Origin: Spirochaetaceae bacterium
GTDB lineage: Bacteria; Spirochaetota; Spirochaetia; UBA9216
Length of the DNA: 36,540 nt
NCBI GenBank assembly: GCA_028527945.1
Contig: JAQQAK010000213.1
Location: 1 to 36,540 of the forward strand
Direction of reading: 5' to 3'
Position 1 is the stretch's first letter. Each line of letters starts with the position of its first letter. The notes beneath the pieces are model-generated. The model ran no database searches and had not been told where the DNA came from. It was given only the letters and a program-made list of their open reading frames with translations. Shown here in pieces: positions 12,485-36,540 of the stretch. The position numbers were made by a program, and so were the translations under genes.

Positions 12485-12590
12485 GAAAAAAAATATATCG
12501 CGGTTTTATTTTATTTCAATTTTAATATGTGAAATAAAATAAATTGGGATAAGATTGTCTATGTAAAAAAGTTTGGAGGATTGTTTATTT

Positions 12591-13748
12591 ATGAATAGCA
12601 ATATTAAAAGACCCTTAAGTATTGTGATTTTTTCATTAATCATGTTTTTAACTGCTTTTGTGACTATTATAGCAAATGCTTATATAAATGTTTTGCCTCT
12701 TTGGGGAGCGGGAAATATTTTTTCAAAGATGGCTGTTATGGATATTGTTGTAATTGCTATTTATCCAGTGGCTGCAGTTGCAATTTATTCAGTGAAAAAA
12801 ACTGGCTGGTGGATTTTTATCATATCAGCCACCTTTATTTTTGTTTATAACATCATCGCTTTTGTAAAGAATCCAATGGTATCTATTGGCAGTGTGATTT
12901 TATTTAATGCTTTTCTTTTTGCCGGAGCAGGCTTTTTTTTTAGAAGACATATAATTGCTCCTTATTTTAATCCAAGGCTTCGCTGGTGGGAGCAAGCCAG
13001 TCGCTATAATATTGATCTTGGAGTATCTATTCAGAGCCATGACTTATGTGAAATAGGGTACCTTGAAGATATTTCTCAGGGAGGGTGCTTTATTCGAATT
13101 CCTGCTGATGTAAAGGTTGGTTTTGTATATTCTTTGCGTATTTCTCTTGGTAATATTTTAAGTATATCCGTTATGGGGCGTGTTATGCGTATTCTTTCAG
13201 ATGAGGGAATTACTGGATTCGGTTTTATGTTTTACAATCTTTCTGAAACAGAACGGCAAGGATTGATAGGGATGATGGATGCTTTGCAAAGACTTGGTTT
13301 AGGCGAGAATCCCGAAGAAGTTGAAAGCGATGATAAACGAATATATGGTAGATACAGTATTAATATCAGTGCTTCGATTTTATATAAACATAAGGAAGTT
13401 GCGGTTCGTTTAATGAATTTATCTGCTACAGGGGCGTATGTCAGGCTTTCTTCTGATCTTGAGATGGGAAGTCTTTGTGGGTTTTTATGTTCATTAGGTG
13501 ATAACTCTGTAAGACTTGATGCTATTGTTAAATGGAAAAAACAAGCCGAGCATTCATGGATGTATGGTCTTTCGTTTAATGATGTAGCTTATAGTGATCG
13601 ACTCAAAATAATGAAAATCCTTGGTAAAATAAAAATCCTTGGCGGTAAGATTCGTGACAGAGATCAACAGGAATATGAATCAATGATAGAGCAAACTATG
13701 TCTTCAACGCCGTACAGGATTTTTCAAAAACACAAAAAAGCTATTTAA
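12591..13748 (+). CDS. Membrane protein with four N-terminal TM segments and two tandem PilZ (c-di-GMP-binding) domains
   Basis: GGAGGA RBS 10 nt upstream of the ATG at 12591. PilZ signature 1: RLRWWEQASR ... DISQGG. PilZ signature 2: KRIYGR ... NLSATG. Confidence 0.75.
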   Translation: MNSNIKRPLSIVIFSLIMFLTAFVTIIANAYINVLPLWGAGNIFSKMAVMDIVVIAIYPVAAVAIYSVKKTGWWIFIISATFIFVYNIIAFVKNPMVSIGSVILFNAFLFAGAGFFFRRHIIAPYFNPRLRWWEQASRYNIDLGVSIQSHDLCEIGYLEDISQGGCFIRIPADVKVGFVYSLRISLGNILSISVMGRVMRILSDEGITGFGFMFYNLSETERQGLIGMMDALQRLGLGENPEEVESDDKRIYGRYSINISASILYKHKEVAVRLMNLSATGAYVRLSSDLEMGSLCGFLCSLGDNSVRLDAIVKWKKQAEHSWMYGLSFNDVAYSDRLKIMKILGKIKILGGKIRDRDQQEYESMIEQTMSSTPYRIFQKHKKAI

Positions 13749-17422: not shown

Positions 17423-17467
17423 ACCGCATGCAAAATTGATATAATTTTGTATGCGGTTTGTTTTTTT
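17423..17467 (+). terminator. Rho-independent terminator after the EEP gene
   Basis: 15-bp stem ACCGCATGCAAAATT / AATTTTGTATGCGGT (one G-U pair), 5-nt loop GATAT, then TTGTTTTTTT. The U-tract overlaps the rex stop codon. Confidence 0.7.
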
Positions 17468-18125
17468 AGTTTTCTTCTGTTGTTGTTTCGTTTAGCACGT
17501 TGACTTGGTAGAAAAGGTGTTCAAGTTCAAGGCAGATGTTTATATTGTGAATTGTACAACCGTTAGCCTTTGACCTGAGGTCGTCCTTATTGTTTATTCT
17601 TAATTCAATTGTTGCAAAGTTAAGAATGCCCTTTATACCGGATTCTATCATTAAATCAAGGGTAGAGGCTGCAGCGCTGTCTGGAACACTTATTATGCCA
17701 ACTTTTGTATCGTTTTTATTAACAAATTCCTTCATATCCTTTATATGGTAAATAGGAACCCCGGATGTTTTTGATACATTCTCCGGTGCAATATCAAAGC
17801 CTGCTATTATTTTAATGCCTTCGTTTCTAAACTCTTCATACTGCATTAGAGCTGTTCCAATTCTGCCGCATCCGGCTAAAATAACTTCCTGCGGTTTGTC
17901 TCTTCCCAAAACTATATCCAGCTTTTCAATTAACAAATTTATGTCATATCCGCCGCGTTTGTTTCCTGGTAAACTCAACATTGAGAAATCTTTTCGCACA
18001 AGTGATGGTGCAACACCAATCGCATCACCTAAATTGTTGGAGAAAACTCTTTCAAGACCCAGTGCTTTTAGTTTTGATAATAACCTTTTATATTTTGACA
18101 AGCGTAAAATCAAGTCTTTATTCAT
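17466..18125 (-). CDS. rex: Redox-sensing transcriptional repressor Rex
   Basis: N-terminal winged-helix block (RLSKYKRLLSKL...SNNLGDAIGV...VRKDFS) and a Rossmann NAD(H) site GCGRIG. AAGAGG RBS. Confidence 0.9.
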   Translation of the reverse strand: MNKDLILRLSKYKRLLSKLKALGLERVFSNNLGDAIGVAPSLVRKDFSMLSLPGNKRGGYDINLLIEKLDIVLGRDKPQEVILAGCGRIGTALMQYEEFRNEGIKIIAGFDIAPENVSKTSGVPIYHIKDMKEFVNKNDTKVGIISVPDSAAASTLDLMIESGIKGILNFATIELRINNKDDLRSKANGCTIHNINICLELEHLFYQVNVLNETTTEEN

Positions 18126-18372: not shown

Positions 18373-18861
18373 ATGGCTGTAGATACGGCTCCTCAAATTG
18401 AGTTCTCTAAAGAGCTTGAGTCTTTTATTGAAGAATGGAAGCCTAAGCCTGGAAATCTGATAATGGTTCTGCACAGAGTGCAGGAAGAGTTTGGATACAT
18501 TCCACGCGAGGCTGCTATCAAGGTTTCTCAATTGCTTGATACACCGCTTGCCAAAATTTATGGTGTTATAACTTTTTATCATTTCTTTAAACTGGATAAA
18601 CCCGGAAAATACAATATTCAGGTTTGTATGGGGACCGCTTGCTATTTAAAAGGTGGTGAAGATTTAATCAACGAAATGGAAAATCTTCTTGGAATTGGAG
18701 TTAACGAAGTAACTGATGACGGTCTTTTTTCAATAGAGTCTGTCAGGTGTGTAGGTTGTTGTGGTCTTGCTCCTGTTATGATAGTTGATGGAGAAGTTTT
18801 TGGTAAAGTAACCAAAGATGAACTTCCGGAGATAATCGCAAACTATAGAAAGCAGGGCTAA
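18373..18861 (+). CDS. hydC: [FeFe]-hydrogenase NuoE-like 2Fe-2S subunit (HydC/HndA type)
   Basis: GGAGGG RBS. Thioredoxin-like 2Fe-2S cysteines CMGTACYLKG and RCVGCCGLAP. Confidence 0.9.
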   Translation: MAVDTAPQIEFSKELESFIEEWKPKPGNLIMVLHRVQEEFGYIPREAAIKVSQLLDTPLAKIYGVITFYHFFKLDKPGKYNIQVCMGTACYLKGGEDLINEMENLLGIGVNEVTDDGLFSIESVRCVGCCGLAPVMIVDGEVFGKVTKDELPEIIANYRKQG

Positions 18862-19425
18862 ATGCACGCATCCGTTTGTGATTTCATTATTGATTGTGTA
18901 CAAAATTCTATAGAGGCCAACGCAGAAGAGATTCTTCTCTTTTTGTATGAGTCGACAGACGATTTTTCAATAAAAATAATTGATAATGGTGCGGGAATGA
19001 CGGATGAAGAAGTTCAAAATGCTGTAGATCCGTTTTATACAGATGGAAGCAAGCATAAAGAGCGGAAAGTTGGGCTTGGTATTCCTTTTATGATTCAATC
19101 TGTAGAACAGGTTAGTGGTAAATGGGCTATCAATTCTAAAAAGGGTAGGGGGACAGAACTCTCTTTTAACTTTCCATTAAATAATATTGATACACCTCCA
19201 ATTGGTGATATCAGTGGAATGTTGCTTCAGGTTCTTATGTTTGATGGAGATTTTGAACTAAAATTCGATAGAGTTTTAGTGCGGGACAGTAGTGAACTGA
19301 AATATACAATAAGCAGATTAGAGTTAAAAGAAGTTCTTGGAGATTTAAATTCTGCTGATTCACTTATATTGGCAAAGCAGTATTTAAGATCTCAGGAAGA
19401 AGATTTAATTGAAGGAGACAGTTGA
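18862..19425 (+). CDS. Stand-alone GHKL (histidine-kinase-like) ATPase domain protein embedded in the hydrogenase operon
   Basis: 187 aa. N box QNSIEAN, G1 DNGAGM, G2 GLGIPF. No DHp/His phosphoacceptor, sensor or TM region. Starts immediately after the hydC stop and ends in a TGATG overlap with the next gene. Confidence 0.8.
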   Translation: MHASVCDFIIDCVQNSIEANAEEILLFLYESTDDFSIKIIDNGAGMTDEEVQNAVDPFYTDGSKHKERKVGLGIPFMIQSVEQVSGKWAINSKKGRGTELSFNFPLNNIDTPPIGDISGMLLQVLMFDGDFELKFDRVLVRDSSELKYTISRLELKEVLGDLNSADSLILAKQYLRSQEEDLIEGDS

Positions 19426-19817
19426 TGGCTAAAATGACTCTGGAAGAATTGCGAAAGCTTAGAAATCAAAAGAAAGATGAGCTTGATAAAAGAGATACAG
19501 AAGGAAAAGATGTTCATATAATAATTGGAATGGGAACCTGCGGAATTGCCGCCGGAGCAAAAGATTCTCTTGATGCATTTCTTGATGAAATAGAAAAAAA
19601 TAAAATAGACAATGTTACCGTTAAGCAAACAGGTTGTATGGGACTATGTTATGTAGAACCTACAGTAGAGGTTAAGGTTCCTGAAATGCCTGACACAATT
19701 TATGGTAATGTTGACGCGGAGACTGCTCGCAATATTGTAAGAGAGCATGTTCTTGGTAAAAAGCTGGTTAGCGAGCATGTCTTTGACAGGCCGTCCAAAG
19801 ATATAGTTAAGGAATAG
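19425..19817 (+). CDS. Thioredoxin-like 2Fe-2S ferredoxin (HndB-like)
   Basis: GMGTCGIAAGA and TGCMGLCYVEP motifs. GAAGGAG RBS 7 nt upstream of the ATG at 19425. Confidence 0.8.
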   Translation: MAKMTLEELRKLRNQKKDELDKRDTEGKDVHIIIGMGTCGIAAGAKDSLDAFLDEIEKNKIDNVTVKQTGCMGLCYVEPTVEVKVPEMPDTIYGNVDAETARNIVREHVLGKKLVSEHVFDRPSKDIVKE

Positions 19818-19828
19818 CGGGGGAAAGT

Positions 19829-21625
19829 ATGGCGGTAAAGAATTTTATACTTGTTTGCGGTGGTACGGCCTGTGAATCAAGTAAAGCTAACGATATCTTT
19901 AATGCGCTTAAATCTGAGGTTGAAGCTCAGGGTGTTGATAAAGATGTTCAAATAGTAAAAACAGGATGTTTTGGTTTTTGTGAAAAAGGACCAATCGTCA
20001 AAGTTCTTCCTGAAGAAGCTTTTTATGTTGAGGTAACACCCGAAGACGCAAAAGAAATTATTTCAGAATCTATTGTAAAAGGTAGAATGGTAAAACGACT
20101 TCTTTATGTTGATGATACTGACAAGAAGAAAGAAGATGATTTTGATATTGAAAACATCAAGTTCTATCAGAAACAGGTTAGAATAGTTCTTAGAAATTGT
20201 GGTTTTATCGATCCTGAAAAAATTGAAGAATATATTGCAAGAGATGGTTATGCTGCTCTTGAAAAAGTTCTTTTTGATATGAGTCCTGATGATGTTATAA
20301 ATGAACTTAAGGTTTCTGGTCTTAGAGGCCGTGGTGGCGCGGGTTTTCCAACTTGGATGAAGTGGAATTTTACCAAAGGCGTTGAGAGTGACCAGAAGTT
20401 TATTGTATGTAACGCTGATGAAGGGGATCCCGGCGCATACATGGATAGATCCACCTTGGAAGGTGATCCGCATTCAGTTCTTGAAGCTATGACTATTGCT
20501 GGTTATACAGTTGGTGCTAACAAGGGTGTAATCTACATTAGAGCTGAGTATCCTCTTGCAATCAAGAGACTTGAAATTGCAATTGAGCAGGCTCGAGAAT
20601 ATGGTCTTCTTGGAGAAGATATTCTCGGAAGTGGGTTCAGTTTTGATTTTGAAATCAGACTTGGTGCTGGTGCATTTGTTTGTGGTGAAGAGACAGCTCT
20701 TCTTCGTTCTATTGAAGGAAACCGTGGTATGCCAACACCTAAGCCACCTTTTCCGGCAGTTGAAGGTCTTTGGGGTAAGCCTACTGTAATTAACAATGTT
20801 GAAACATGGGCAAATGTTCCAATGATCATTCTAAAAGGCGGAAAATGGTTTAACTCTATAGGAACAGAAAAGTCTTCTGGAACCAAGGTTTTTGCGCTTA
20901 CTGGTAAAATAAATAATTCTGGTCTTGTTGAAGTTCCAATGGGAACAACTCTTCGAGAAATAGTTTTTGATATTGGCGGTGGAATTAAAGACGGTAAAAA
21001 GTTTAAAGCTGTTCAAACCGGCGGTCCTTCCGGTGGTGTTCTAACAAATGATTTTCTTGATACTCCAATTGATTTTGATCAGCTTACTGCTATTGGATCT
21101 ATGATGGGCTCTGGTGGAATGATTGTTATGGATGAAGACGACTGTATTATTGATGTCGCCAAGTTCTATCAGGAATTCTGTGTTGAAGAGTCTTGTGGAA
21201 AATGTGCTCCTTGTAGAATTGGAACAAGAAAGCTTTATGATATTCTTGATAAGATTTCAAAAGGCAAGGGAACTCACAAGGATCTTGAAAATCTTGAAAC
21301 AATAGGAAACGCAATGAAGAAAGCAGCTCTCTGTGGTCTTGGTCAGACAGCACCTAACCCTATTCTTTCGACACTAAAGTATTTTAAAGATGAATACCTC
21401 GAGCATGTTGATGATAAAGTTTGTCGGGCTGGAAAGTGTAAAGACCTTGTTAGATTTGAAATCGATCCTGAAAAATGTATTGGTTGTACTGTTTGTTCAA
21501 GAAAGTGTCCGGTTGGCTGTATCTCAGGAGAGAGAAAACAACCTCATTCTATTGATCAGAGCCAGTGTGTTAAGTGCGGAGCTTGTTATGCTGCATGTAA
21601 GTTCGGCGCTATTAAAAAAAGCTAA
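19829..21625 (+). CDS. hydB: [FeFe]-hydrogenase NuoF-like flavoprotein subunit (HydB/HndC type)
   Basis: N-terminal 2Fe-2S (CGGTAC...GCFGFCEKGP), FMN/NADH site GLRGRGGAGFPT, 4Fe-4S CGKCAPCR, and a C-terminal dicluster CIGCTVCSRKCP / CVKCGACYAAC. Confidence 0.92.
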   Translation: MAVKNFILVCGGTACESSKANDIFNALKSEVEAQGVDKDVQIVKTGCFGFCEKGPIVKVLPEEAFYVEVTPEDAKEIISESIVKGRMVKRLLYVDDTDKKKEDDFDIENIKFYQKQVRIVLRNCGFIDPEKIEEYIARDGYAALEKVLFDMSPDDVINELKVSGLRGRGGAGFPTWMKWNFTKGVESDQKFIVCNADEGDPGAYMDRSTLEGDPHSVLEAMTIAGYTVGANKGVIYIRAEYPLAIKRLEIAIEQAREYGLLGEDILGSGFSFDFEIRLGAGAFVCGEETALLRSIEGNRGMPTPKPPFPAVEGLWGKPTVINNVETWANVPMIILKGGKWFNSIGTEKSSGTKVFALTGKINNSGLVEVPMGTTLREIVFDIGGGIKDGKKFKAVQTGGPSGGVLTNDFLDTPIDFDQLTAIGSMMGSGGMIVMDEDDCIIDVAKFYQEFCVEESCGKCAPCRIGTRKLYDILDKISKGKGTHKDLENLETIGNAMKKAALCGLGQTAPNPILSTLKYFKDEYLEHVDDKVCRAGKCKDLVRFEIDPEKCIGCTVCSRKCPVGCISGERKQPHSIDQSQCVKCGACYAACKFGAIKKS

Positions 21626-21640
21626 GCAAGGAGAATAACA

Positions 21641-23392
21641 GTGAGTACTGTAGATATAAAGGTAAACGGCAGAGCTTTAACTGTGCCTGCCGGAACTTCA
21701 ATTTTAAAAGCAGCAAAGCTTGCCGGCTGTAAAATCCCGACACTTTGCTATCATTCAGATCTGGAGCCATGGGCTGCATGTGGTATCTGTGTTGTTAAAG
21801 TAGAAGGCAGTCCCAGAATGGTTAGAGCCTGTGCCACAATGGTTACAGCAGGTCAGAATTACATAACAGATGATCCTGAAATCCATCAGATTAGAAAGAC
21901 TGTTATAGAGATGACTCTGGCAGATCATCCGCAGGAATGCCTTACATGTGCTAGAAATCAAACTTGTGAGCTTCAGAGGCTTGCCGCGGAATATGGAATT
22001 AGAGAGATTCCTTTTGACAGAAGAGTTAAGAGGCTTCCTAAAGATGAATCAACTCCGTCAATTGTTCTTGATCCTTCAAAATGTATTCAGTGTGGGCGTT
22101 GTGCTCAGGTATGTCAGCAGCTTCAGGATGTATGGGCTCTTGAGTTCATAGGACGTGGGGAAAAAACTAGGCTTATGCCTTCTGCTGGTGTTGTTCTTAA
22201 TGAAAGTCCATGTATTAAATGTGGTCAATGTTCCGCACACTGTCCAGTTGGCGCAATTTATGAGAAGGATGAGACAGATCTTCTTATGAACGCTATACTT
22301 GATGAAACAAAACATGTTGCTGTTCAGATGGCTCCTGCTGTTCGTGTTGCTTTTGGCGAGGCTTTTGGAATGGAGCCTGGCGAAATAACCACAGGAAAGA
22401 TTTATGCCGCTCTAAGACGTCTTGGTGTTGATGCTGTATTTGATACTAACTTTTCTGCTGACCTTACTATTATGGAAGAAGGATCAGAGTTTGTTGAACG
22501 ATTTGTAAATGGTAAGGGTGAACTTCCTCAATTAACATCATGCTGTCCTGCATGGACAGATTATATGGAAAAGTATTATCCGGATATGATTCCTAATTTT
22601 TCAACCGCAAAGTCACCTCAGATGATGCAGGGAGCGGTAATTAAGTCTTATTATGCCAAGAACAAAGGTATAGATCCAAAGGATATTTATTCTGTATCTA
22701 TTATGCCTTGTACAGCTAAAAAGTTTGAACGCGTACGAGATGAGAATATGAAATCTTCCGGTTATAGTGATGTCGATCTTGTTTTAACAACAAGAGAGCT
22801 GTCTAGAATGATTAAAACTTTCGGAGTAGATTTTGTTAATCTTCCGGAAGAAGACGCAGACAGTCCTGTAGGAAAATACACTGGCGCTGGAACTATTTTT
22901 GGTGTTACCGGTGGTGTTATGGAGGCTGCTGTAAGATCCGCCTATTATCTAATTACCAAAGAAGAGCTTTCTAATGTTAATATTGAAGCTGTTCGAGGTA
23001 TGGATGGTGTTAAGGTTGGAGAAGTTGATATAAAAGGAACTAAAGTTAAGGTTGCTGTAGCTCATGGAATGGCTAATGTTAAAGCTGTTCTTGATGAGGT
23101 TCGAGAGGCTAAAGAGAAGGGACTTGAGCCTCCTTATCACTTTATCGAAGTTATGGCATGTCGTGGTGGCTGTATAGCTGGTGGTGGCCAGCCTTATGGC
23201 ACAGAAGATGATGTACGTGAGAAGAGGATTGCTGGTCTCTATAAAGATGATGAACAGTCTGAGTTTAGATGTTCTCATCATAATCCTGAAATTACACAAA
23301 TTTATAAGGATTATCTTGGAGCACCTCTCAGTGAGAAATCTCACCATCTTCTTCACACACATTACACTCCAAGACCTGTTTACCAAAAATAG
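21641..23392 (+). CDS. hydA: [FeFe]-hydrogenase catalytic subunit (multi-cluster M3-type)
   Basis: GTG start after AAGGAG. N-terminal 2Fe-2S and accessory 4Fe-4S motifs (CIQCGRCAQVC, CIKCGQCSAHCP). H-cluster motifs TSCCPAW, MPCTAKKFE and EVMACRGGCIAGGGQP. Confidence 0.95.
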   Translation: MSTVDIKVNGRALTVPAGTSILKAAKLAGCKIPTLCYHSDLEPWAACGICVVKVEGSPRMVRACATMVTAGQNYITDDPEIHQIRKTVIEMTLADHPQECLTCARNQTCELQRLAAEYGIREIPFDRRVKRLPKDESTPSIVLDPSKCIQCGRCAQVCQQLQDVWALEFIGRGEKTRLMPSAGVVLNESPCIKCGQCSAHCPVGAIYEKDETDLLMNAILDETKHVAVQMAPAVRVAFGEAFGMEPGEITTGKIYAALRRLGVDAVFDTNFSADLTIMEEGSEFVERFVNGKGELPQLTSCCPAWTDYMEKYYPDMIPNFSTAKSPQMMQGAVIKSYYAKNKGIDPKDIYSVSIMPCTAKKFERVRDENMKSSGYSDVDLVLTTRELSRMIKTFGVDFVNLPEEDADSPVGKYTGAGTIFGVTGGVMEAAVRSAYYLITKEELSNVNIEAVRGMDGVKVGEVDIKGTKVKVAVAHGMANVKAVLDEVREAKEKGLEPPYHFIEVMACRGGCIAGGGQPYGTEDDVREKRIAGLYKDDEQSEFRCSHHNPEITQIYKDYLGAPLSEKSHHLLHTHYTPRPVYQK

Positions 23393-23577: not shown

Positions 23578-24933
23578 TTGGCTGAGTTTATTATACTATT
23601 GTCTATTTATGCTGTTGCAGGAACAGGAATAGCTGTCTATGCAGGTCGTCAACGAGGTGGTTCAGATCAGGAGTCGTATTTTATTGGTGGCCGAGGAATG
23701 GGATGGCTTGTCAGTGCTCTCACTTATGCAGCTACTACTTATTCATCATTCATGATGGTTGGTCTTGTTGGTTTATCTTATTCTACCGGCGTTGGAGCGA
23801 TGTTGTTTGAAATGACCTACCTTGTCGCAACTGTAATATTGCTTTCAATCTATGGTAAAAAAATATGGCAAATGAGCAAGGAGAATTCTCTTGTATCTCC
23901 TATGGAAATATTTTCACTTAGATATGGAAAATTGACTGGAGGCGTTGGCGCTGCAATCTCTGTAATAGCACTTGTGCCTTATACTGCCGCTCAGGTGATT
24001 GGTCTTTCAATTATCTTTCAGAATTTTGGAATCAGTTATGGTGCAGGTGTCGCAATAGCTGCTGTACTAATTTGTATATGGTCGCTTGTCGGAGGCTTGC
24101 GTGGTGTAGCTCTTACAGACGCGATCCAAGGTTTGTTTATGCTGGCTGTTGCAATAATAGCTGTCTTGTGGGCAAACAAGCATTTTAGTGGTGTTGAAAT
24201 GTCTACCTTTCCTAATAAGGTCTGGACTCCAGTATTTTTTATAAATATGACATTACCCTGGGCTTTTTTCGCTTTAACAAACCCTCAGGTTGTACAAAGG
24301 CTTTTTATTATAAAAGACAAGCAAGGGCTAAGGAAAATGATTGTTTTATTTGCAGTTATTGGAGCTGCTTATACAATCATAACTTGTTTAATAGGTTTTT
24401 CTGCTAAATATGGAACCCTTAGTGGTACATTTGCAGAAATACAGGGACGTGATAACGTTATTTTAGGTTTGTTAGGACTTATGGGGAAAGGCTTGGGACT
24501 TGCGATAGCTCTTAGTATTGTTTTTGCAAGCATTTCAACATCTAACTCTATAATTTTAACTCTTTCATCTATGGTTACACGAGATCTTGCCCGAAATAAA
24601 AATAACGTTTGGTTTGGAAGAATTTTTATTGTTGTTATCACTGCTGTTGTAGCATTATTTGCGTTGAGAAAAACTTCATATATTGTAGAGTTATCTGTTT
24701 CAACTTCAAGAATATTAATGTGTTTTCTACCTTTGTTTCTTGATATTTTTCATTTCAAAAAAGGTGGCAAGGTTACAGGTGTAATTACGATTTTTGGTGG
24801 AGCCGTTTCTGCTATAATTCTTAGCAAAATGGGACTTTCTTTAAGTTCTGTATATTCACTTGCTGCAGCTTTTGTGTTTTATTTTATTGGAGTTTTTATA
24901 GATAGCAGAAATAAATCAGCGATAAAGGCTTAG
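23578..24933 (+). CDS. Sodium:solute symporter (SSF) family transporter, substrate unknown
   Basis: 451 aa and highly hydrophobic with many TM segments. SSF-like N-terminal block YFIGGRGMGWLVSALTYAATTYSSFMMVG. TTG start 6 nt after GGAGGG. Confidence 0.8.
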   Translation: MAEFIILLSIYAVAGTGIAVYAGRQRGGSDQESYFIGGRGMGWLVSALTYAATTYSSFMMVGLVGLSYSTGVGAMLFEMTYLVATVILLSIYGKKIWQMSKENSLVSPMEIFSLRYGKLTGGVGAAISVIALVPYTAAQVIGLSIIFQNFGISYGAGVAIAAVLICIWSLVGGLRGVALTDAIQGLFMLAVAIIAVLWANKHFSGVEMSTFPNKVWTPVFFINMTLPWAFFALTNPQVVQRLFIIKDKQGLRKMIVLFAVIGAAYTIITCLIGFSAKYGTLSGTFAEIQGRDNVILGLLGLMGKGLGLAIALSIVFASISTSNSIILTLSSMVTRDLARNKNNVWFGRIFIVVITAVVALFALRKTSYIVELSVSTSRILMCFLPLFLDIFHFKKGGKVTGVITIFGGAVSAIILSKMGLSLSSVYSLAAAFVFYFIGVFIDSRNKSAIKA

Positions 24934-25628
24934 TTTTTTTTACGACCTTCTATTGCTTTTTTTATATTTGTAAAAGATAAAGCTTCAATTTCAAATGTAT
25001 TGAAGCGGCAGGCAATGTCGTCTATGTAATGGGCGTCTGAATCTTGTAGTAAGGTAAAATCTCCTGTCTCTACAGGGCAGGGGATTCTAACTGTTTCGAG
25101 GGCTGTATATTCCATTTGTGGAAGAAAGCCCAATTGAGATGGGATGCTGAAAACTGGTTTATCAATATGGGCTGGAATGAACATGCCCCCTATTGTTTTT
25201 ACTATATCGAATAATTCTTCAAGAGGTATATCTGTAGCACTTACAAGGTATTTATCAACTTCTCCAAGAATATTATCATTTTCATCAACATAAACTTGAT
25301 CCCCGAATTTTTCAGGAATATTAAAAATATCAGGAAGTCTGTCATAGACAATTTCTCCCATTTTTTCTGCCTGCTTTACGGTTTTAAACAAACATAAAAT
25401 ATGGGCTTCTTCTTCTGATGTGACTTCTAAACCAAAAACTGGAAAAATCCCAACATCTCTACAACATGAATCAAAAGCTTTACAGTTTAATGCTGTATTA
25501 TGATCTGTTAGAGCTGCGACATGCATGCCCCGCTCCATTGCTGTTTTTGCAATGGAAGCTGGAGACATTTCAAGACTCCCGCATGGGCTGAGACATGAGT
25601 GTATATGAAGGTCTGCTTTTATTTTCAA
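24930..25628 (-). CDS. PHP-domain metal-dependent phosphoesterase
   Basis: 232 aa. PHP motifs ADLHIHS and ALTDHNT, with further His/Asp ligands (PAHIDKP, DSDAH). TTG start 4 nt after the upstream stop. The 3' end overlaps the convergent symporter stop. Confidence 0.8.
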   Translation of the reverse strand: MKIKADLHIHSCLSPCGSLEMSPASIAKTAMERGMHVAALTDHNTALNCKAFDSCCRDVGIFPVFGLEVTSEEEAHILCLFKTVKQAEKMGEIVYDRLPDIFNIPEKFGDQVYVDENDNILGEVDKYLVSATDIPLEELFDIVKTIGGMFIPAHIDKPVFSIPSQLGFLPQMEYTALETVRIPCPVETGDFTLLQDSDAHYIDDIACRFNTFEIEALSFTNIKKAIEGRKKN

Positions 25629-25632
25629 TTGC

Positions 25633-25965
25633 TCAATATATTCCTAATGTTTTTGCAACCTTAATAGACGCTTCAAACTGTGAAAGAGGTGTTTTGAGTA
25701 TTGCGATATTCTCATTGTTAGCGGCTTCTATCATTTCATCAGGGGCTTTTCTGTTATTACAGATGATAATAGCATTTATACCTGCAAGAGACGCAACCGC
25801 AATTGTATTTTTATGCGCTTGAATTGTTATTAAAGCAGATTCATCTGGGGCATTGCCCATTACATCACTTAAGAGATCTGAGGTGTAAGCTATTACCACT
25901 TCGGTATCCGGACATGTTGTTAAAAGTTCAAATCCAAGTTCTTTATAAAGTTCCTTAATTTTCAT
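25633..25965 (-). CDS. Single-domain DRTGG protein (copy 2)
   Basis: About 110 aa. DRTGG-type pattern SDLLSDVMGNAP...ALITIQAHKNTIAVASLAGINAIIICNNRKAPDEMIEAANNENIAIL. ATG at 25965 is preferred over the GTG at 25971. Confidence 0.75.
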   Translation of the reverse strand: MKIKELYKELGFELLTTCPDTEVVIAYTSDLLSDVMGNAPDESALITIQAHKNTIAVASLAGINAIIICNNRKAPDEMIEAANNENIAILKTPLSQFEASIKVAKTLGIY

Positions 25966-26039
25966 AATCACATTCTAACGTTTATTTTATTAATTGTCGA
26001 GTTTTTGGAGCTTGAAGGGTGAAACTGATTATTTGAGAA

Positions 26040-26435
26040 TTATTGAGCTATAAAAACATCAGGTAATTCTACTTCACAACCTTTATACAGAATCTTGTCT
26101 ACTTTATGCATACACAAAACTACATTATTATTGCTGTTTATTGTTACATCAAGATTTGCACCTTTAAAAGTTAATTTTGGAAAATTAAGGTCTGTCAAAG
26201 ATATTATGTTATTGTTCTCATCAATAACGCAATGGGTAGATATTGTCCACCATTGATCGCCTGAAGGATTTATTTCAATAATTCCTGTTTTATATTCATT
26301 TTCTACGTCGGCAGATTTTTCTATAGCAACAGCATAAATTACATCAGGGCTGAATTCGTACATGTAAAGATCTAATGAAAAAACTACAGCAGCATTGAAA
26401 AAGAGTATTATTAAACAAAGATATTTTTTTATCAT
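26040..26435 (-). CDS. Small secreted protein of unknown function
   Basis: 131 aa with an N-terminal signal peptide (LCLIILFFNAAVVFS). No recognisable motifs. The start overlaps the stop of the CBS-kinase gene (ATGA). Confidence 0.55.
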   Translation of the reverse strand: MIKKYLCLIILFFNAAVVFSLDLYMYEFSPDVIYAVAIEKSADVENEYKTGIIEINPSGDQWWTISTHCVIDENNNIISLTDLNFPKLTFKGANLDVTINSNNNVVLCMHKVDKILYKGCEVELPDVFIAQ

Positions 26436-27382
26436 TTTTGAACCTTTTTTGTGGAATCTGTTTTTATGATTTCTGGAAGGTTTATTACTATGCGTATTTC
26501 TGTCCCATTTTCGGAAGAATTTATATTAAATATATCGGAGACTCTCTTTACATTCGGCAGACCCATTCCTGCTCCGAATCCCATTGACCTTATCCAGTCG
26601 TTAGCGGTTGAATAGCCTTCGCTGAGAGCCAGATCTATATCTTTTATTCCCGGACCTTTGTCCCTTGCAAGAATTTCTATATGATTATCTGTTATGCGGC
26701 ATATTATTTCTCCACCCAAAGAATGTGCTACAAGGTTTATTTCTAATTCGTAAGCAGCAGTTGCTACTGCTCTTATTGTTTTTCGATTGACTCTGTGTTC
26801 CTGGAGAACTTTCTTGATTCCACTGGATGCTTTTCCTGCGTTTTTAAAATCATTTTGGACAACCGGATATCTTCGTATTATGTTTCCAATTTCAGTGCGG
26901 ATTCCTTGTTTTGCAGAGTCTTCAAGTCTTTTTATTTCCTTATTCATTACAGTTATTGTATGAAGAGTAATGTCTCTGCTGGTTATCATTCCGACAATTT
27001 CTTTATTGCTGTTTAGAACAGGAAAACGGTTGTAGCTGTATTTTTCAAAATAGTCAATTGCAAAGTTTATCGGCATTTGCTCTTCAAGAACAACCGGGTT
27101 TCTTGACATATGTTTGCTTACAGGTTCATCCATCAAGCCGTCTTCAAGAGCGTTTAGAAGATCTTCAATGCTTATAATTCCTAAAAGTCGTTTACCGTTT
27201 ACAACTGGCAGTCCGCTTATCCCGTTATTTTTCATCAAAGTTTTAACTTCGCGCATGATTACATTTGGCCCTACTGATACAATATTCTTTGACATAATGT
27301 CAGAAATTTTGTATTCCAGAAGTAGATCTAGTATCACTATTGGTGAGTTGTTTTCGTAAACCGGGATAATTTTTTTAATCAT
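26432..27382 (-). CDS. Tandem CBS pair fused to an RsbW/SpoIIAB-type GHKL serine-kinase (anti-sigma-factor-like) domain
   Basis: 316 aa. Two CBS repeats (ISDIMSKNIVSV...GLPVV; VSKHMSRNPVVL...FPVL). N box YELEINLVAHS, G1 RDKGPGI, G2 GFGAGMGLPNV. No DHp domain. Confidence 0.85.
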   Translation of the reverse strand: MIKKIIPVYENNSPIVILDLLLEYKISDIMSKNIVSVGPNVIMREVKTLMKNNGISGLPVVNGKRLLGIISIEDLLNALEDGLMDEPVSKHMSRNPVVLEEQMPINFAIDYFEKYSYNRFPVLNSNKEIVGMITSRDITLHTITVMNKEIKRLEDSAKQGIRTEIGNIIRRYPVVQNDFKNAGKASSGIKKVLQEHRVNRKTIRAVATAAYELEINLVAHSLGGEIICRITDNHIEILARDKGPGIKDIDLALSEGYSTANDWIRSMGFGAGMGLPNVKRVSDIFNINSSENGTEIRIVINLPEIIKTDSTKKVQK

Positions 27383-27385
27383 ACT

Positions 27386-27724
27386 CTAAGTATTTAGCTT
27401 TTGAAAAACCGCCGCGCAAGTTTCGAACATGGTCTTTTGAGTTGAGATTAAAGAGAGATCGAATTCTTTTGCTAATTTTAGCATTCCGGGTTGAGGACTT
27501 TTTCCATTAACCAGAATGATTCCCACTGCATCGACTATATTGGCAGTCCTGATAGTTTGTTCTGTGTTCAGAGCTGTTATCAGGATCAGGTTTTCCTCTT
27601 CTGCTACTAATACTTCACTCATGAGATCGCTTGCAACAACATGTTCAATTTCTACCTGACTGAAGCTGCTGCCTTTTGTATGATTTTGACAGCATAAATC
27701 TGATGCTAACTTTTCAATTGTCAT
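27386..27724 (-). CDS. Single-domain DRTGG protein (copy 1)
   Basis: 112 aa. Pattern ASDLMSEVLVAEEENLILITALNTEQTIRTANIVDAVGIILVNGKSPQPGMLKLAKEFDLSLI. GAGAGGGG RBS. Confidence 0.75.
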   Translation of the reverse strand: MTIEKLASDLCCQNHTKGSSFSQVEIEHVVASDLMSEVLVAEEENLILITALNTEQTIRTANIVDAVGIILVNGKSPQPGMLKLAKEFDLSLISTQKTMFETCAAVFQKLNT

Positions 27725-27810
27725 TAAACCCCTCTCTATTGTCCTATTTTCCGAAATTTAACTGTGTAGGTCAAGACTGTATAGAATAATGAAGTTATCT
27801 GGTATAATTT

Positions 27811-28854
27811 CTATTCTATATTAATTTCAGTCAGGTTTAAATCTTTGTCAATTTTAGCTATTTTTTTTGAATCTTTTGAAAGCAAATAGTAAAAGTTGTC
27901 ATAAGATCCTACATTTTTTAGGTTGTATTCTTTTAAAATGAGTGGTGATTTTATCATTATAAGATTCTTGTTTTTTTGGATCTTAAGTTTTCTAACTATT
28001 TTTTCTCCATTTAAACCATTTGAAAAAACTATATATGAATTATCTATTTTGAAAAGGTAATTAAAAGGATCTTCCATGCTATAAATTAATTTTAGTTTTA
28101 TATCTTTTAATTCTGGCCCAAGTTTTTCTATCTTATATAATTTATAAAGATTACGCTCATCTTTTTCATCATTGTAGAGAAAGTTTGCGTTTAGCAGATC
28201 TTCTCCTAAAAAATATAATGAAGAGTTGTCGTTAGAACCAAAATAATCTTTAACAATATCTATTGAGATTTTGTGTTCTGGGAAATATAGCTGAGAGCCT
28301 GTATCATTATAGACCAGACTCATTACAAGCTTATTATCATACCTTATCATTCTATATTTACTGTTCCAGATGGCTGGAATTGGAGTAATTTCTGTAATTT
28401 TATTATTCGGCATTGATAGACCTGCGGCATAAAGTTGTGTTGAATTATTATTTATTCCGGCCACATATATTTTATTAGATGATATATCTATACCAAACCA
28501 TCCGGAATACTGGTCAAAATAGTCTATTATGTAAACATTTCCTGTTGCTTTTTCTATATATATAGGAATGATTTTTTTTTCTTCTGTATAGACCGACGCG
28601 TATACACCATTATTTGATGGTTCTTCAAGAATTCTGTATAAATTCCTGTTCTTGAAATTGTATTTAGCAATTACTTTCTCTTTGTCTGGATTAAACAATA
28701 TTATTTCTGAATTATCAGAACTTTTCAGATAGATTATTTTATCATCACTTTTGGTAGCTTTATATCTTTGAGGAACCAGACGGACAGTCCCTGAGGACTG
28801 CCCGCAGCTTATTGTTATTAAACTTAGTAATAATAAAATCCAGATACGACGCAT
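27811..28854 (-). CDS. Lipoprotein of unknown function, repetitive beta-rich sequence
   Basis: Lipobox LITISCG. Asn/Lys/Tyr/Ile-rich with recurring short beta-strand-like segments. The DNA is visibly more AT-rich than its neighbours. It starts 2 nt after the upstream stop. Confidence 0.6.
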   Translation of the reverse strand: MRRIWILLLLSLITISCGQSSGTVRLVPQRYKATKSDDKIIYLKSSDNSEIILFNPDKEKVIAKYNFKNRNLYRILEEPSNNGVYASVYTEEKKIIPIYIEKATGNVYIIDYFDQYSGWFGIDISSNKIYVAGINNNSTQLYAAGLSMPNNKITEITPIPAIWNSKYRMIRYDNKLVMSLVYNDTGSQLYFPEHKISIDIVKDYFGSNDNSSLYFLGEDLLNANFLYNDEKDERNLYKLYKIEKLGPELKDIKLKLIYSMEDPFNYLFKIDNSYIVFSNGLNGEKIVRKLKIQKNKNLIMIKSPLILKEYNLKNVGSYDNFYYLLSKDSKKIAKIDKDLNLTEINIE

Positions 28855-28856
28855 TT

Positions 28857-30182
28857 TTACCTTGAAAGACTTTCTACTATATTAGTTGTAGCGCTGTATG
28901 TTTTATATTTATATGTTTTCCAGAGAATCTTAAATTTGTAATATCTGTCACTTGCTGATGAGATTATATCATCTGGTGCTACAAGGTAGCCTCTATTTGT
29001 ATTGGAGGTGTCTCCGTCTACATTAATTCCTGCTTTTTTCCATGCTGAATAGACAACCTTGGTACAATAGGGATTGTTTGATATGTTTAGATCGTGGCTT
29101 GTATTACCTATGTAGACAGCTTCAAGGTAAGGTAGATCATAATCTGCCGGCTCATCTACATCTATAGCTGCTTTTGCGTAAGCAATAGCTGTTTTAGCCG
29201 CGTCTTCTGTGTAAGATTTCGGTCTCAAAATCTTTACGGCTTTTGATCTTGTATAATATGTTAATGGATCACGTGTTACATGTCCGGGGTTTTCTGCTTT
29301 TACTTCTTCAACCATCCCGTCCTGATCAGATTGAGCTGTTAACACAGAATATTCATCATCTTCTCTTCCATTTCGTGACCAGTAATTATAGTCAAAGATA
29401 CCGCCGTGATGGTAGTCGCCGATTATGTAATGCGAAATAGCACTCATTGTTGATGGATTACAGAGTTTTACAATAAGTATATCTCCATTTTTTAACTGAG
29501 AACCGAGATCGTCTGTCATAACTGTATCGTAATGGCTTGCGGAAGAAAGACCCTTGCTCGTAGATGTTTCTGAATAGTTATCAACACTTGCTTTCAGATT
29601 TTTTACTTCATTGATATTGAGTGTGACTTCAAGTTCTTCTGCAAGAGCTGATAAAGAGTCCCAGTTTTCGTCAGAAACATAAAGACTTGCTATATAACCT
29701 GCAAATAACGGCTCTTCAATAGCCATTTCATTTCCGGCAACATAAATAGTTTTGTTTGATACTGTTTTTCCTAAAAATGCTGAGTTAATAAATGATTTTA
29801 GTTCGCTTCTTGCTGACAATTCTTCAATGTCTTCGTCTGAAAGGTTTCCTGAATCGTTATCGATTTCTTCAGAGATTTCAATCTCAAGATTGTCTGACGC
29901 AAGGATTTTTGCCTGTTCTTCTTCTGTCATTTCATCAAAAACACCAAGAAGCGCAGTCTTCATATCTGCCGGCATTCCTGTTTCTTCAGAATCACTGTTC
30001 CTTGAGTCTGGTGAGAAAAGATTTGATATTGTACTCTGATCCATGCTTGCATCCCAAGTGCTCAGAGTTTTTGTGGTTCCATCTTCTGTTTCATCGTTAT
30101 CAGCAGTAATGCCATTTTGACATCCTGCAAAAACAAGGACAAGAAGAAGGACGAATAGATTGTAGTATAATCTTTTTTTCAT
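28857..30182 (-). CDS. Lipoprotein with C-terminal permuted papain-fold (YiiX/YaeF-like NlpC/P60-related) domain
   Basis: GGAGGGG RBS. Lipobox LVFAGC and an acidic Ser/Asp/Glu-rich linker. The motif order is His-before-Cys: NGDILIVK...DYHHGGIF, then NNPYCTKVVYSAWKKAGINV. This is a motif-level call only. Confidence 0.6.
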   Translation of the reverse strand: MKKRLYYNLFVLLLVLVFAGCQNGITADNDETEDGTTKTLSTWDASMDQSTISNLFSPDSRNSDSEETGMPADMKTALLGVFDEMTEEEQAKILASDNLEIEISEEIDNDSGNLSDEDIEELSARSELKSFINSAFLGKTVSNKTIYVAGNEMAIEEPLFAGYIASLYVSDENWDSLSALAEELEVTLNINEVKNLKASVDNYSETSTSKGLSSASHYDTVMTDDLGSQLKNGDILIVKLCNPSTMSAISHYIIGDYHHGGIFDYNYWSRNGREDDEYSVLTAQSDQDGMVEEVKAENPGHVTRDPLTYYTRSKAVKILRPKSYTEDAAKTAIAYAKAAIDVDEPADYDLPYLEAVYIGNTSHDLNISNNPYCTKVVYSAWKKAGINVDGDTSNTNRGYLVAPDDIISSASDRYYKFKILWKTYKYKTYSATTNIVESLSR

Positions 30183-35865: not shown

Positions 35866-35955
35866 TTATAATTTATAAAAAGCTAGAAGTAATATTTTTT
35901 TCAGGAAAAATTAAAATATTTGACAAATCATTTAAGATCTGCAATCATTATTTTT

Positions 35956-36540
35956 ATGGAAAGTTCAAAAAAGAAAAAAGCATTAATAATGAAGCAGAAG
36001 GTTATGTTTCAGGTTCTTTATGCTCTAATACCTCTGGCTATCTTTTCTATTTATTTATATGGTTGGCGTTCTCTTTCTATTCTTATCATTGTTAATGTTG
36101 CAGGCTTTCTTAGTGAGTACGTCTTTGCTAAAATCTATAAAAAGCAAGTAAGTTCTGCGGTTTTTGTAACAAACTTTCTATATGCTTTATCTATGCCTCC
36201 GGCAATCCCATACTGGATAGCAGTTGTTGGAATTGTTTTTGGAGTTGTTTTTGGTAAAATGGTTTTTGGCGGATTTGGCCGAAATATTTTTAACCCTGCT
36301 ATATCTGGCCGAGCTTTTGTCTATATTAGTTTTGGTGCTCCAATGACCTCTGGATTTGTTCAACCTTCCGGAGGCTTTCCTGGCGGCTTTGTTCATTGGC
36401 TTTCCGGGGTTGATGCTGTTTCAAAGGCTACGCCTATTGCTGCTTTTTCAAGCGGAAGTAATGTTGATTTATTAAATCTGATAAGCGGAATAACTGCAGG
36501 ATCTCTTGGTGAGACCTGTGCTATTCTTATAATTATTGGA
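35956..36540 (+). CDS. rnfD: RnfD/NqrB-family membrane subunit, 5' partial (runs off the window)
   Basis: Open frame from the ATG at 35956 to the window end; it is absent from the track because it has no stop. Family blocks MFQVLYALIPLA, FGKMVFGGFGRNIFNPAISGRAFVYISF and VDAVSKATPI. The start codon is uncertain because no SD is present. Confidence 0.8.
   Translation, partial: MESSKKKKALIMKQKVMFQVLYALIPLAIFSIYLYGWRSLSILIIVNVAGFLSEYVFAKIYKKQVSSAVFVTNFLYALSMPPAIPYWIAVVGIVFGVVFGKMVFGGFGRNIFNPAISGRAFVYISFGAPMTSGFVQPSGGFPGGFVHWLSGVDAVSKATPIAAFSSGSNVDLLNLISGITAGSLGETCAILIIIG

Follow-up and report, generated by a model that had tools for sequence, protein, structure and literature searches.

A conserved GHKL kinase, DRTGG and PHP gene cassette near bifurcating hydrogenase genes: a candidate phospho-switch in which a CBS pair and a Group D hydrogenase look interchangeable

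What is encoded by the genes that lie beside the bifurcating hydrogenase operon of a spirochaete, and could they form a signalling system that acts on that enzyme? The question is raised by a 36,540-nucleotide stretch of Spirochaetaceae DNA (contig JAQQAK010000213.1 of assembly GCA_028527945.1; hereafter the window), whose minus strand at 24930..27724 carries, in order, genes for a small DRTGG-domain protein (DRTGG-1), a CBS-CBS-GHKL kinase, a second DRTGG protein (DRTGG-2) and a PHP phosphoesterase. An original prediction, made from the sequence of the window, had read these four genes as a partner-switching-type cassette with a role in hydrogen and redox metabolism. A Pfam scan confirmed all four genes with their claimed domains, and all of the motifs listed for the kinase (ELEINLVAHS, DKGPGI and GFGAGMGLPNV) and for the PHP protein (DLHIHS and LTDHNT) were found; the interval comprises five open reading frames (ORFs) rather than four, the fifth having been missed. 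Comparison across phyla revealed a portable core, consisting of a SpoIIAB-like GHKL kinase, one DRTGG protein and a PHP enzyme encoded in conserved order, within which the CBS pair and a Group D hydrogenase are mutually exclusive and never occur together.

A scan with an alignment of the kinase, limited to one genome per species, returned at least 600 matches, of which the best 80 loci were kept (those singled out below carry L numbers), and the window's proteins were mapped onto these by tblastn. The 80 loci span Spirochaetota, Kiritimatiellia, Verrucomicrobiota, Chloroflexi, Cloacimonadota, Fidelibacterota, Atribacterota, Acidobacteriota, Ignavibacteria, Planctomycetota, Thermotogota, Bacillota and a bin labelled Bacteroides, with gene order conserved over at least 12 phyla. 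Among the loci with enough flanking sequence, a DRTGG gene lay downstream of the kinase in 62 of 72, a PHP gene downstream in 59 of 72, and a DRTGG gene upstream in 44 of 77. Small divergent proteins are under-detected by tblastn, and a recount based on hidden Markov models (HMMs) and ORFs gave 53/72 for the downstream DRTGG gene. The claim that the four families constitute a conserved cassette was thus borne out.

So was the predicted co-localization with hydrogenase genes: where at least 8 kb of flank was available on both sides, hydB or hydC fell within 10 kb in 24 of 36 loci, at a median kinase-to-hydB distance of 2.7 kb (binomial P of ~2e-27 at a generous chance rate of 3.3%, shared ancestry being ignored). 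The upstream paralogue, DRTGG-1, is preferentially present where Bfu/Hyd genes adjoin, being present in 18 and absent from 2 loci with such genes nearby, versus 6 and 10 without them (odds ratio, 15; Fisher P = 0.0014). Three distinct layouts were seen, which points to repeated selection: (i) hydA-hydC divergent from Rex-DRTGG1-kinase-DRTGG2-PHP; (ii) hydC-2Fe2S-hydB-DRTGG1-kinase-DRTGG2-PHP-GHKL-BfuA-like; and (iii), in Bacillota, the kinase, both DRTGG genes and PHP flanking a gene of the M2e hydrogenase type, followed by hydC-GHKL-2Fe2S-hydB-hydA. The catalytic partner in the second layout is not a hydrogenase, as it is an HdrA-like fusion of 1087 amino acids in a member of the FCB group (L055, 12371-15634) and a molybdopterin/formate dehydrogenase (FDH)-like fusion in a member of the Verrucomicrobiota (L038, 15626-17533). 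The constant companions of the cassette are instead the NuoE/NuoF-type subunits, an orphan GHKL ATPase and a 2Fe-2S protein. Since the partner may be a hydrogenase, FDH-like or HdrA-like, the link appears to be to NuoE/NuoF-type Bfu enzymes in general; the proposed tie to hydrogenase control therefore stands as regards proximity to hydB/hydC and needs to be widened as regards the enzyme, and cores far from any hyd gene also exist. As a separate observation, a DRTGG-kinase pair in an Anaerolineales bin (L040, 2188-7730) lies ~2 kb upstream of genes for putative small and large subunits of a [NiFe]-hydrogenase, which, if this call from sequence motifs holds, would extend the association past [FeFe] enzymes.

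The Bacillota layout bears on how the cassette might receive its input. There, the match to the window's kinase is limited to the GHKL half (residues ~158-304), consistent with a stand-alone GHKL protein, and a gene for 393-546 amino acids lies between the kinase and DRTGG-2, in the same slot as the extra ORF of the window. The product of this slot gene combines two [4Fe-4S] clusters, Fe_hyd_lg_C and the PF04060 FeS motif, the same M2e/Group D arrangement as in TamHydS. With an HMM derived from the slot genes, scores of 141-660 bits were obtained in every cassette with a CBS-less kinase (21/21 loci), and no Group D gene was found with it in the cassettes of the 58 loci whose kinase is CBS fused (0/58), so that a CBS pair and a sensor hydrogenase look interchangeable as inputs to one core. 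By its domain content, the window cassette appears to be the HydS-less, CBS-input form of that core. The absence of HydS from the window had been pointed out in the original prediction; a Pfam survey of the large ORFs likewise found no second hydrogenase-like gene there, and the absence is part of a systematic pattern. Both DRTGG genes are retained in Bacillota although the kinase is without CBS domains, which ties the DRTGG proteins to the GHKL domain itself. The suggestion that similar gene sets occur in Thermoanaerobacterales, together with sensory hydrogenases, held for the Group D/M2e type; its extension to Thermotogae did not, as only the kinase is present at the Thermosipho locus (L058) and T. 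maritima has a different system, of the Group C/M2f type.

The kinase (26432..27382, minus strand; 316 amino acids) matches CBS at 102.8 bits, HATPase_c at 32.8 bits and HATPase_c_2 at 31.3 bits (cut-off, 27.4), the HATPase_c score likewise being above its cut-off, and has no HisKA match. Its AlphaFold2 model (predicted local distance difference test score [pLDDT], 81) consists of the CBS pair, a long linker helix and the GHKL domain. A fold search of the PDB returned CBS proteins first and then SpoIIAB, represented by 1til_E, which is SpoIIAB in complex with SpoIIAA (template modelling [TM] score of 0.83, target normalized; root mean square deviation, 2.4), and by 1l0o_A (TM, 0.81); the match covers the whole SpoIIAB chain, and no histidine kinase catalytic domain was among the 50 fold matches listed. 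The assignment to the anti-sigma-factor serine kinase type, without a DHp domain, is supported by these results, and neither HisKA nor response-regulator domains were found in the cassette or elsewhere in the window in the survey of large ORFs. Invariant in 74 orthologues are E212, N216, D241-x-G-P-G and G268-FGAGMGLPN, which correspond to the GHKL ATP-binding motifs: the N box (E-x3-N-x3-H), the G1 box (D-x-G-x-G) and the Gly-rich lid of the G2 box (G268-N277). The best GHKL-specific NCBIfam match was spIIAB (TIGR01925), whose score of 34.3 bits against a cut-off of 135 marks the kinase as a distant relative rather than an orthologue; no NCBIfam model names any cassette protein. Single-sequence searches of the PDB were uninformative for the isolated GHKL domain, as they were for DRTGG-1, and the exact sequence of the window kinase has no record in public assemblies.

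The two DRTGG proteins are only 27% identical. DRTGG-1 (27386..27724, minus strand) and DRTGG-2 (25633..25971, minus strand) both have 112 amino acids, the latter being 110 amino acids long in the public gene call, which begins at 25965. Both narrowly miss the gathering score of PF07085 (23.2 and 24.0 bits versus 25.2), the D of the eponymous motif being invariant and the R and TGG replaced; DRTGG-2 also matches Hpr_kinase_N at 29.0 bits. Common to both paralogues is an invariant D-L-[LM]-S-D, whose Asp and Ser are both 100% conserved (42 sequences for DRTGG-1 and 62 for DRTGG-2), along with one invariant Thr. For DRTGG-1, the motif reads D33-L-M-S36-D and is accompanied by T50 and T60, with D33, S36 and T60 conserved in all 42 orthologues; for DRTGG-2, D-L-L-S-D is accompanied by invariant T49, Q51, H53 and N55 (alignments of 62 and 50 sequences). 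Of the two, DRTGG-2 was modelled with AlphaFold2, at a pLDDT of 96. The best PDB match was AF1212 (2ioj, Pfam DRTGG; TM, 0.84; E = 2e-6), and other neighbours were the DRTGG domain of a CBS-pyrophosphatase (3l2b; TM, 0.71) and the N-domains of HprK, Mur ligases and LpxD; no STAS protein was among the PDB fold matches listed for the model. In the model, the helix after strand 2 has the invariant Ser in its first turn, a position that we take to be the same structural context as that of Ser58 in SpoIIAA.

Public names given to DRTGG-2 homologues clash, including "iron-sulfur binding hydrogenase," "serine kinase of HPr protein" and "predicted transcriptional regulator" (P0137, P0160, P0163, P0193, P0208 and others). 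As the window's DRTGG-2 has a single Cys and matches neither Fe-S nor hydrogenase domains, at least the first of these names looks like an annotation error.

The PHP protein (24930..25628, minus strand; 232 amino acids; PHP at 42.2 bits, cut-off 26.4) has a complete and invariant set of metal ligands (H8, H10, D42, H43, E68, H76, H154, D198 and H200), to which the family adds invariant S14, C16, N44 and E73; an unusual LSPC motif is invariant as well. No PP2C/SpoIIE domain was found in the window or in the annotated related loci, and the PHP enzyme occupies the place that such a phosphatase would have. A profile of the family searched against the PDB matched Endonuclease Q first (EndoQ, 5zb8; E = 1e-13), with the entire PHP domain covered, followed by TrpH-like phosphoesterases, RNase AM and a pAp-phosphatase-type enzyme; TM0559 and the PHP domain of PolC were matched as well. 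The PHP protein phosphatases CpsB/YwqE were not represented by any chain at E <= 1 in the same search.

The reading of these data that we favour, at a probability that we place a little short of even, is that the cassette is a HydS-less, CBS-input, partner-switching-like phospho-switch module for NuoE/NuoF-type Bfu/HydABC enzymes. The CBS pair, probably by reading adenine nucleotides or energy charge, would set the activity of the kinase, which would bind one or both DRTGG partners and phosphorylate the invariant Ser of D-L-[LM]-S-D at the N-terminal end of the helix, the PHP enzyme then removing the modification. The phosphorylation state would select the partner held by the DRTGG proteins or by the kinase, as in partner switching, with DRTGG in the place of STAS and PHP in the place of PP2C. 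The output may act on the neighbouring HydABC, either post-translationally (on HydB/HydC, the orphan GHKL ATPase or the 2Fe-2S protein) or via Rex. A kinase/substrate/phosphatase arrangement of this kind is plausible: as had been noted, no sigma factor, STAS protein or PP2C was found by the Pfam survey of the window's 35 large ORFs, and none occurs in the Pfam-annotated neighbourhoods of related loci L081-L085 either, so that the always-adjacent small DRTGG proteins are the obvious partners of the kinase. Active (HydABCD)2 of Caldanaerobacter subterraneus has been made in Escherichia coli from hydC-tte0891-hydD-hydB-hydA and HydEFG only (PMC4694547), that is, without cassette genes, which argues that the role of the cassette is regulatory rather than in maturation. 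In its most far-reaching form, in which DRTGG proteins are a hitherto unrecognized class of phospho-acceptors in partner switching, PHP a new Ser-phosphoprotein phosphatase, and CBS and Group D inputs gate Bfu enzymes post-translationally, the proposal must be considered rather doubtful.

Several results weigh against the phospho-switch. The prediction had cast the DRTGG proteins as STAS counterparts, and their fold is unlike STAS; its neighbours, such as the N-domains of LpxD and Mur ligases (among them uridine-nucleotide-binding domains) and the insert of CBS-pyrophosphatases, are ligand-binding or oligomerization modules. Moreover, seven invariant polar residues of DRTGG-2 lie in the loops after two strands, more like a binding pocket than a simple phospho-acceptor loop. 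The predicted role of PHP as the opposing protein phosphatase is likewise weakened, and with it the kinase/substrate/phosphatase arrangement, because its nearest relatives are the nucleic-acid and nucleotide enzymes of the EndoQ and TrpH types, with RNase AM and pAp phosphatase also ahead of the protein phosphatases, which were absent at the threshold given above. Sphaerochaeta-type genomes have only kinase-DRTGG-PHP, in a housekeeping context where no hyd gene lies within 10 kb, and in some lineages, such as that of the Thermosipho locus, the kinase stands alone. Finally, all of the co-occurrence counts come from loci selected by their kinase and are not corrected for shared ancestry.

Some of these points are better accommodated by the main alternative, which we consider possible though unlikely, in which the DRTGG proteins are sensors of nucleotides or other small ligands, or oligomerization subunits, that dock on the GHKL protein. 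The cassette would still regulate Bfu/HydABC enzymes, with the PHP enzyme hydrolysing a nucleotide or nucleic-acid-type signal and the GHKL protein acting on HydB/HydC, Rex, the orphan GHKL ATPase or the 2Fe-2S protein, or serving as an ATP-driven binding switch. The kinship of DRTGG to nucleotide-binding LpxD/Mur N-domains, the HprK N-domain and the CBS-pyrophosphatase insert fits such a role, as does the placing of the invariant polar residues (D, S, D, T, Q, H and N) in strand-to-helix loops. CBS and DRTGG domains also co-occur in pyrophosphatases regulated by nucleotides and diadenosine tetraphosphate (Ap4A), and the NCBIfam matches of the PHP protein agree with its profile in pointing to EndoQ and the TrpH/RNase AM/pAp phosphatase group. 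Yet both DRTGG genes are kept where the Bacillota kinase has no CBS pair, the residue that is invariant in both paralogues alongside Asp is a Ser, and the minimal set of kinase, one DRTGG protein and PHP is made up as a kinase/substrate/phosphatase triad would be; moreover, the cassette has no gene for a nucleotide cyclase or synthetase.

It is improbable that kinase, DRTGG and PHP are a general energy-charge device whose proximity to hydABC in the window is incidental or reflects no more than shared regulation. The Sphaerochaeta-type cores and orphan kinases described above are what such a device would predict, and the window cassette is on the strand opposite to hydA, with a convergent symporter gene in between. 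Against it stand the 24 of 36 loci with hydB/hydC within 10 kb, the three layouts in many phyla, in which cassette genes are often interleaved with hydC, hydB and the orphan GHKL gene, and the position of the Bacillota sensory hydrogenase gene inside the cassette itself. An assembly, cofactor-insertion or repair system for flavin/Fe-S HydB/HydC, with a chaperone-like GHKL protein and a nucleotide-processing PHP enzyme, is very improbable, for although hydB/hydC are the constant neighbours while the catalytic subunit varies (hydrogenase, FDH-like or HdrA-like fusion), the cassette codes for no DNA-binding output domain and the GHKL superfamily includes chaperones, the C. subterraneus enzyme is active when made in E. 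coli without cassette genes, the GHKL domain is SpoIIAB-like rather than Hsp90- or MutL-like, the input parts, a CBS pair or a sensory hydrogenase of low activity, are of classical sensor types, and the core is also found with no Bfu genes nearby.

The proposed phospho-switch resembles, and departs from, several known systems. With SpoIIAB/SpoIIAA/SpoIIE and RsbW/RsbV/RsbU it shares a small GHKL Ser-kinase fold of the anti-sigma type with N, G1 and G2 boxes and no DHp domain, with adjoining genes for small single-domain alpha/beta proteins and for a metal-dependent phosphoesterase, the set being reduced to a minimal triad in some genomes. In contrast to those systems, it has DRTGG instead of STAS and PHP instead of PP2C/PPM, no sigma factor gene lies nearby, the kinase is fused to CBS domains or paired with a sensory hydrogenase, and phosphorylation is a prediction. 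Closest in gene content are the clusters of the Group D (M2e, TamHydS-type) hydrogenases, in which, in Bacillota, the genes for the orthologous kinase, both DRTGG proteins and PHP flank M2e ahead of hydC-GHKL-2Fe2S-hydB-hydA, whereas in the window an M2e hydrogenase is missing and the kinase has a CBS pair instead. The Group C systems (M2f, HydS/HfsB; Ruminococcus albus, T. maritima and hfsABCD of T. saccharolyticum) likewise place a putative H2- or redox-sensing unit with components of reversible protein phosphorylation beside catalytic or bifurcating hydrogenases; their gene families differ, in that the hydrogenase has a fused PAS domain, the Ser phosphatase (HfsC) is of the PP2C type, and DRTGG, CBS-GHKL and PHP genes are lacking. 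Neither the PAS-domain hydrogenase nor the PP2C was found in the survey of the window's large ORFs, and hfsABCD was ruled out as a known equivalent, HfsC being a PP2C-type phosphatase and HfsD a hydrogenase. The insert of CBS-pyrophosphatases (CBS-DRTGG-CBS) and AcuB-type adaptors share the use of CBS and DRTGG as a regulatory unit responsive to adenine nucleotides or Ap4A; unlike in the pyrophosphatases, DRTGG and CBS are on separate polypeptides in the cassette, the effector is a GHKL kinase, and DRTGG is kept where CBS is absent. With the EndoQ/TrpH branch, which holds the best sequence-profile relatives of the cassette PHP, the conserved ligands of a trinuclear metal site are shared, whereas the cassette protein is a bare PHP domain of 232 amino acids, without the zinc finger and C-terminal domain of EndoQ, and differs from EndoQ and TrpH in its invariant LSPC and its gene's fixed position 4 nucleotides downstream of a DRTGG gene.

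Parts of this arrangement have been noted before. A histidine/serine-kinase-like gene between M2e and HydABC was recorded in earlier work (PMC3561251, PMC8163306), and the table of Carere et al. places the M2e genes Cthe_0335, Csac_1857, TTE0887 and Teth39_1463 each three genes before hydC, which fits the Bacillota layout, with the gene-by-gene assignment inferred from the numbering of locus tags. The same numbering suggests that tractable organisms (C. thermocellum, Caldicellulosiruptor and Thermoanaerobacter) carry the Bacillota version. A 2026 study described the identification of the interaction partners of Group D hydrogenases as critical and still listed them as unknown (PMC13104023). 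In the open-access literature, we found no paper linking DRTGG or PHP genes, anti-sigma factors or partner switching to sensory or bifurcating hydrogenases, and PHP, DRTGG, anti-sigma and regulatory kinase genes go unmentioned in reviews of multimeric hydrogenases and in clostridial hydrogenase mining. The DRTGG and PHP members, the mutual exclusivity of CBS and M2e, and the spread of the cassette to FDH-like and HdrA-like Bfu enzymes appear to be previously undescribed.

Within the window, the cassette differs from its relatives by the fifth ORF (26040..26435, minus strand; 131 amino acids), which has a signal-peptide-like N terminus and no Pfam match. Junctions or overlaps of 3 to 4 nucleotides had been claimed throughout; they hold for DRTGG-1/kinase (3 nucleotides) and DRTGG-2/PHP (4 nucleotides) and not for kinase/DRTGG-2, where the extra ORF, overlapping the stop of the kinase gene (ATGA), is followed by a 68-nucleotide spacer. 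In the closest relatives found, L081 and L082, whose kinases are 71-74% identical to the window's, DRTGG-kinase-DRTGG-PHP occur with nothing separating the kinase from the second DRTGG gene, and DNA alignment with these relatives showed a clean insertion of ~400 bp in the window. Four relatives of the ORF, of the same length and 53-29% identity, were found among 1.84 billion representative proteins, and the two metagenome loci that carry relatives hold no cassette genes. As it is missing from close relatives and has homologues in other contexts, the ORF was ruled out as a regular cassette member; it represents a real but very rare small-protein family and a lineage-specific insertion.

Transcription of the cassette may likewise be divided at this place. 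A promoter-like element upstream of DRTGG-1 (TTGACC-17-GAAAAT, 27746..27774, minus strand) is, from its consensus match alone (9/12), a possible start of the cassette transcript. Just upstream of DRTGG-2 lies the best site of the region (TCGACA-17-TAGAAT, 25972..26000, minus strand; 10/12), of which CTCGACAAT and the second hexamer are kept in the window, L081 and L082. This conservation in three spirochaete sequences suggests that DRTGG-2 and PHP may have their own, internal promoter, and the cassette may be two transcription units. A terminator scan found no convincing terminator between the cassette genes.

The hydrogenase operon of the window, hydC-GHKL-2Fe2S-hydB-hydA (18373..23392, plus strand), encodes a bifurcating HydABC-type enzyme with NuoE-like HydC, NuoF-like HydB and the [FeFe] hydrogenase HydA; between hydC and hydB lie the genes for the orphan GHKL ATPase (18862-19425, plus strand; 187 amino acids) and a thioredoxin-like 2Fe-2S protein (19422-19817, plus strand; 131 amino acids). 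The placing of the cassette about 1.5 kb beyond an operon that carries an orphan GHKL ATPase proved correct, the distance from hydA to the end of PHP being ~1.5 kb and a convergent SSF symporter gene (23578..24933) lying in between. The same five operon genes accompany the cassette in other phyla, and all are within 10 kb of it in the window. In other phyla the orphan GHKL gene directly follows PHP, so that its product may be a component of the signalling module and not of the enzyme; in published work it is reported to be absent from the purified holoenzyme. Divergent from hydC is a gene for a Rex-type redox-sensing repressor (17466..18125, minus strand; Put_DNA-bind_N and CoA_binding). Rex lies directly upstream of and co-oriented with DRTGG-1 at L008, L009, L016, L017, L025, L028, L047, L053 and L056, and L082 has exactly the layout of the window bar the insertion (PHP, convergent SSF, hydA-hydC, Rex). 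Matches to the Rex operator TTGTGAA-N6-TTCACAA numbered 5 versus 4.1 expected and thus provide no evidence for Rex control of the cassette.

Other genes of the surroundings were also recorded. Immediately upstream of the cassette are two lipoprotein- or signal-peptide-type ORFs of 347 and 441 amino acids (27811-28854 and 28857-30182, both minus strand) with no Pfam match. An Rnf/Nqr-like cluster with desulfoferrodoxin and rubredoxin genes lies directly upstream of DRTGG-1 at L081 (1958-5839) and L082 (5540-9475), and an RnfD/NqrB-like gene is found ~8 kb from the cassette at the end of the window (35893-36540, plus strand), a sign of local rearrangement. Farther away, a 602-amino-acid ORF (9273-11081, plus strand) shows an unusual fusion of an HMGL-like (pyruvate carboxyltransferase-type) domain to a C-terminal dCache_1/PDC sensor domain, and a protein of 391 amino acids with two PilZ matches (12573-13748, plus strand) is a putative cyclic di-GMP receptor.

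HydABC and related Bfu enzymes set the balance of H2, NADH and ferredoxin in fermenters, syntrophs, gut bacteria and biofuel strains; the Group D "sensory" hydrogenases have been under spectroscopic study since 2020. Our comparative analyses name concrete partner candidates for the latter, namely a SpoIIAB-like kinase, two DRTGG proteins and a PHP enzyme, and the same candidates are conserved, with a CBS input, in many phyla that lack the Group D sensor. They offer a testable role for the function-less DRTGG domain and suggest that a redox/H2 input and an energy-charge input may feed one common switch. If the most far-reaching form of the proposal is true, it would provide the first function for DRTGG and the missing signalling pathway of the Group D sensory hydrogenases, in more than a dozen phyla.

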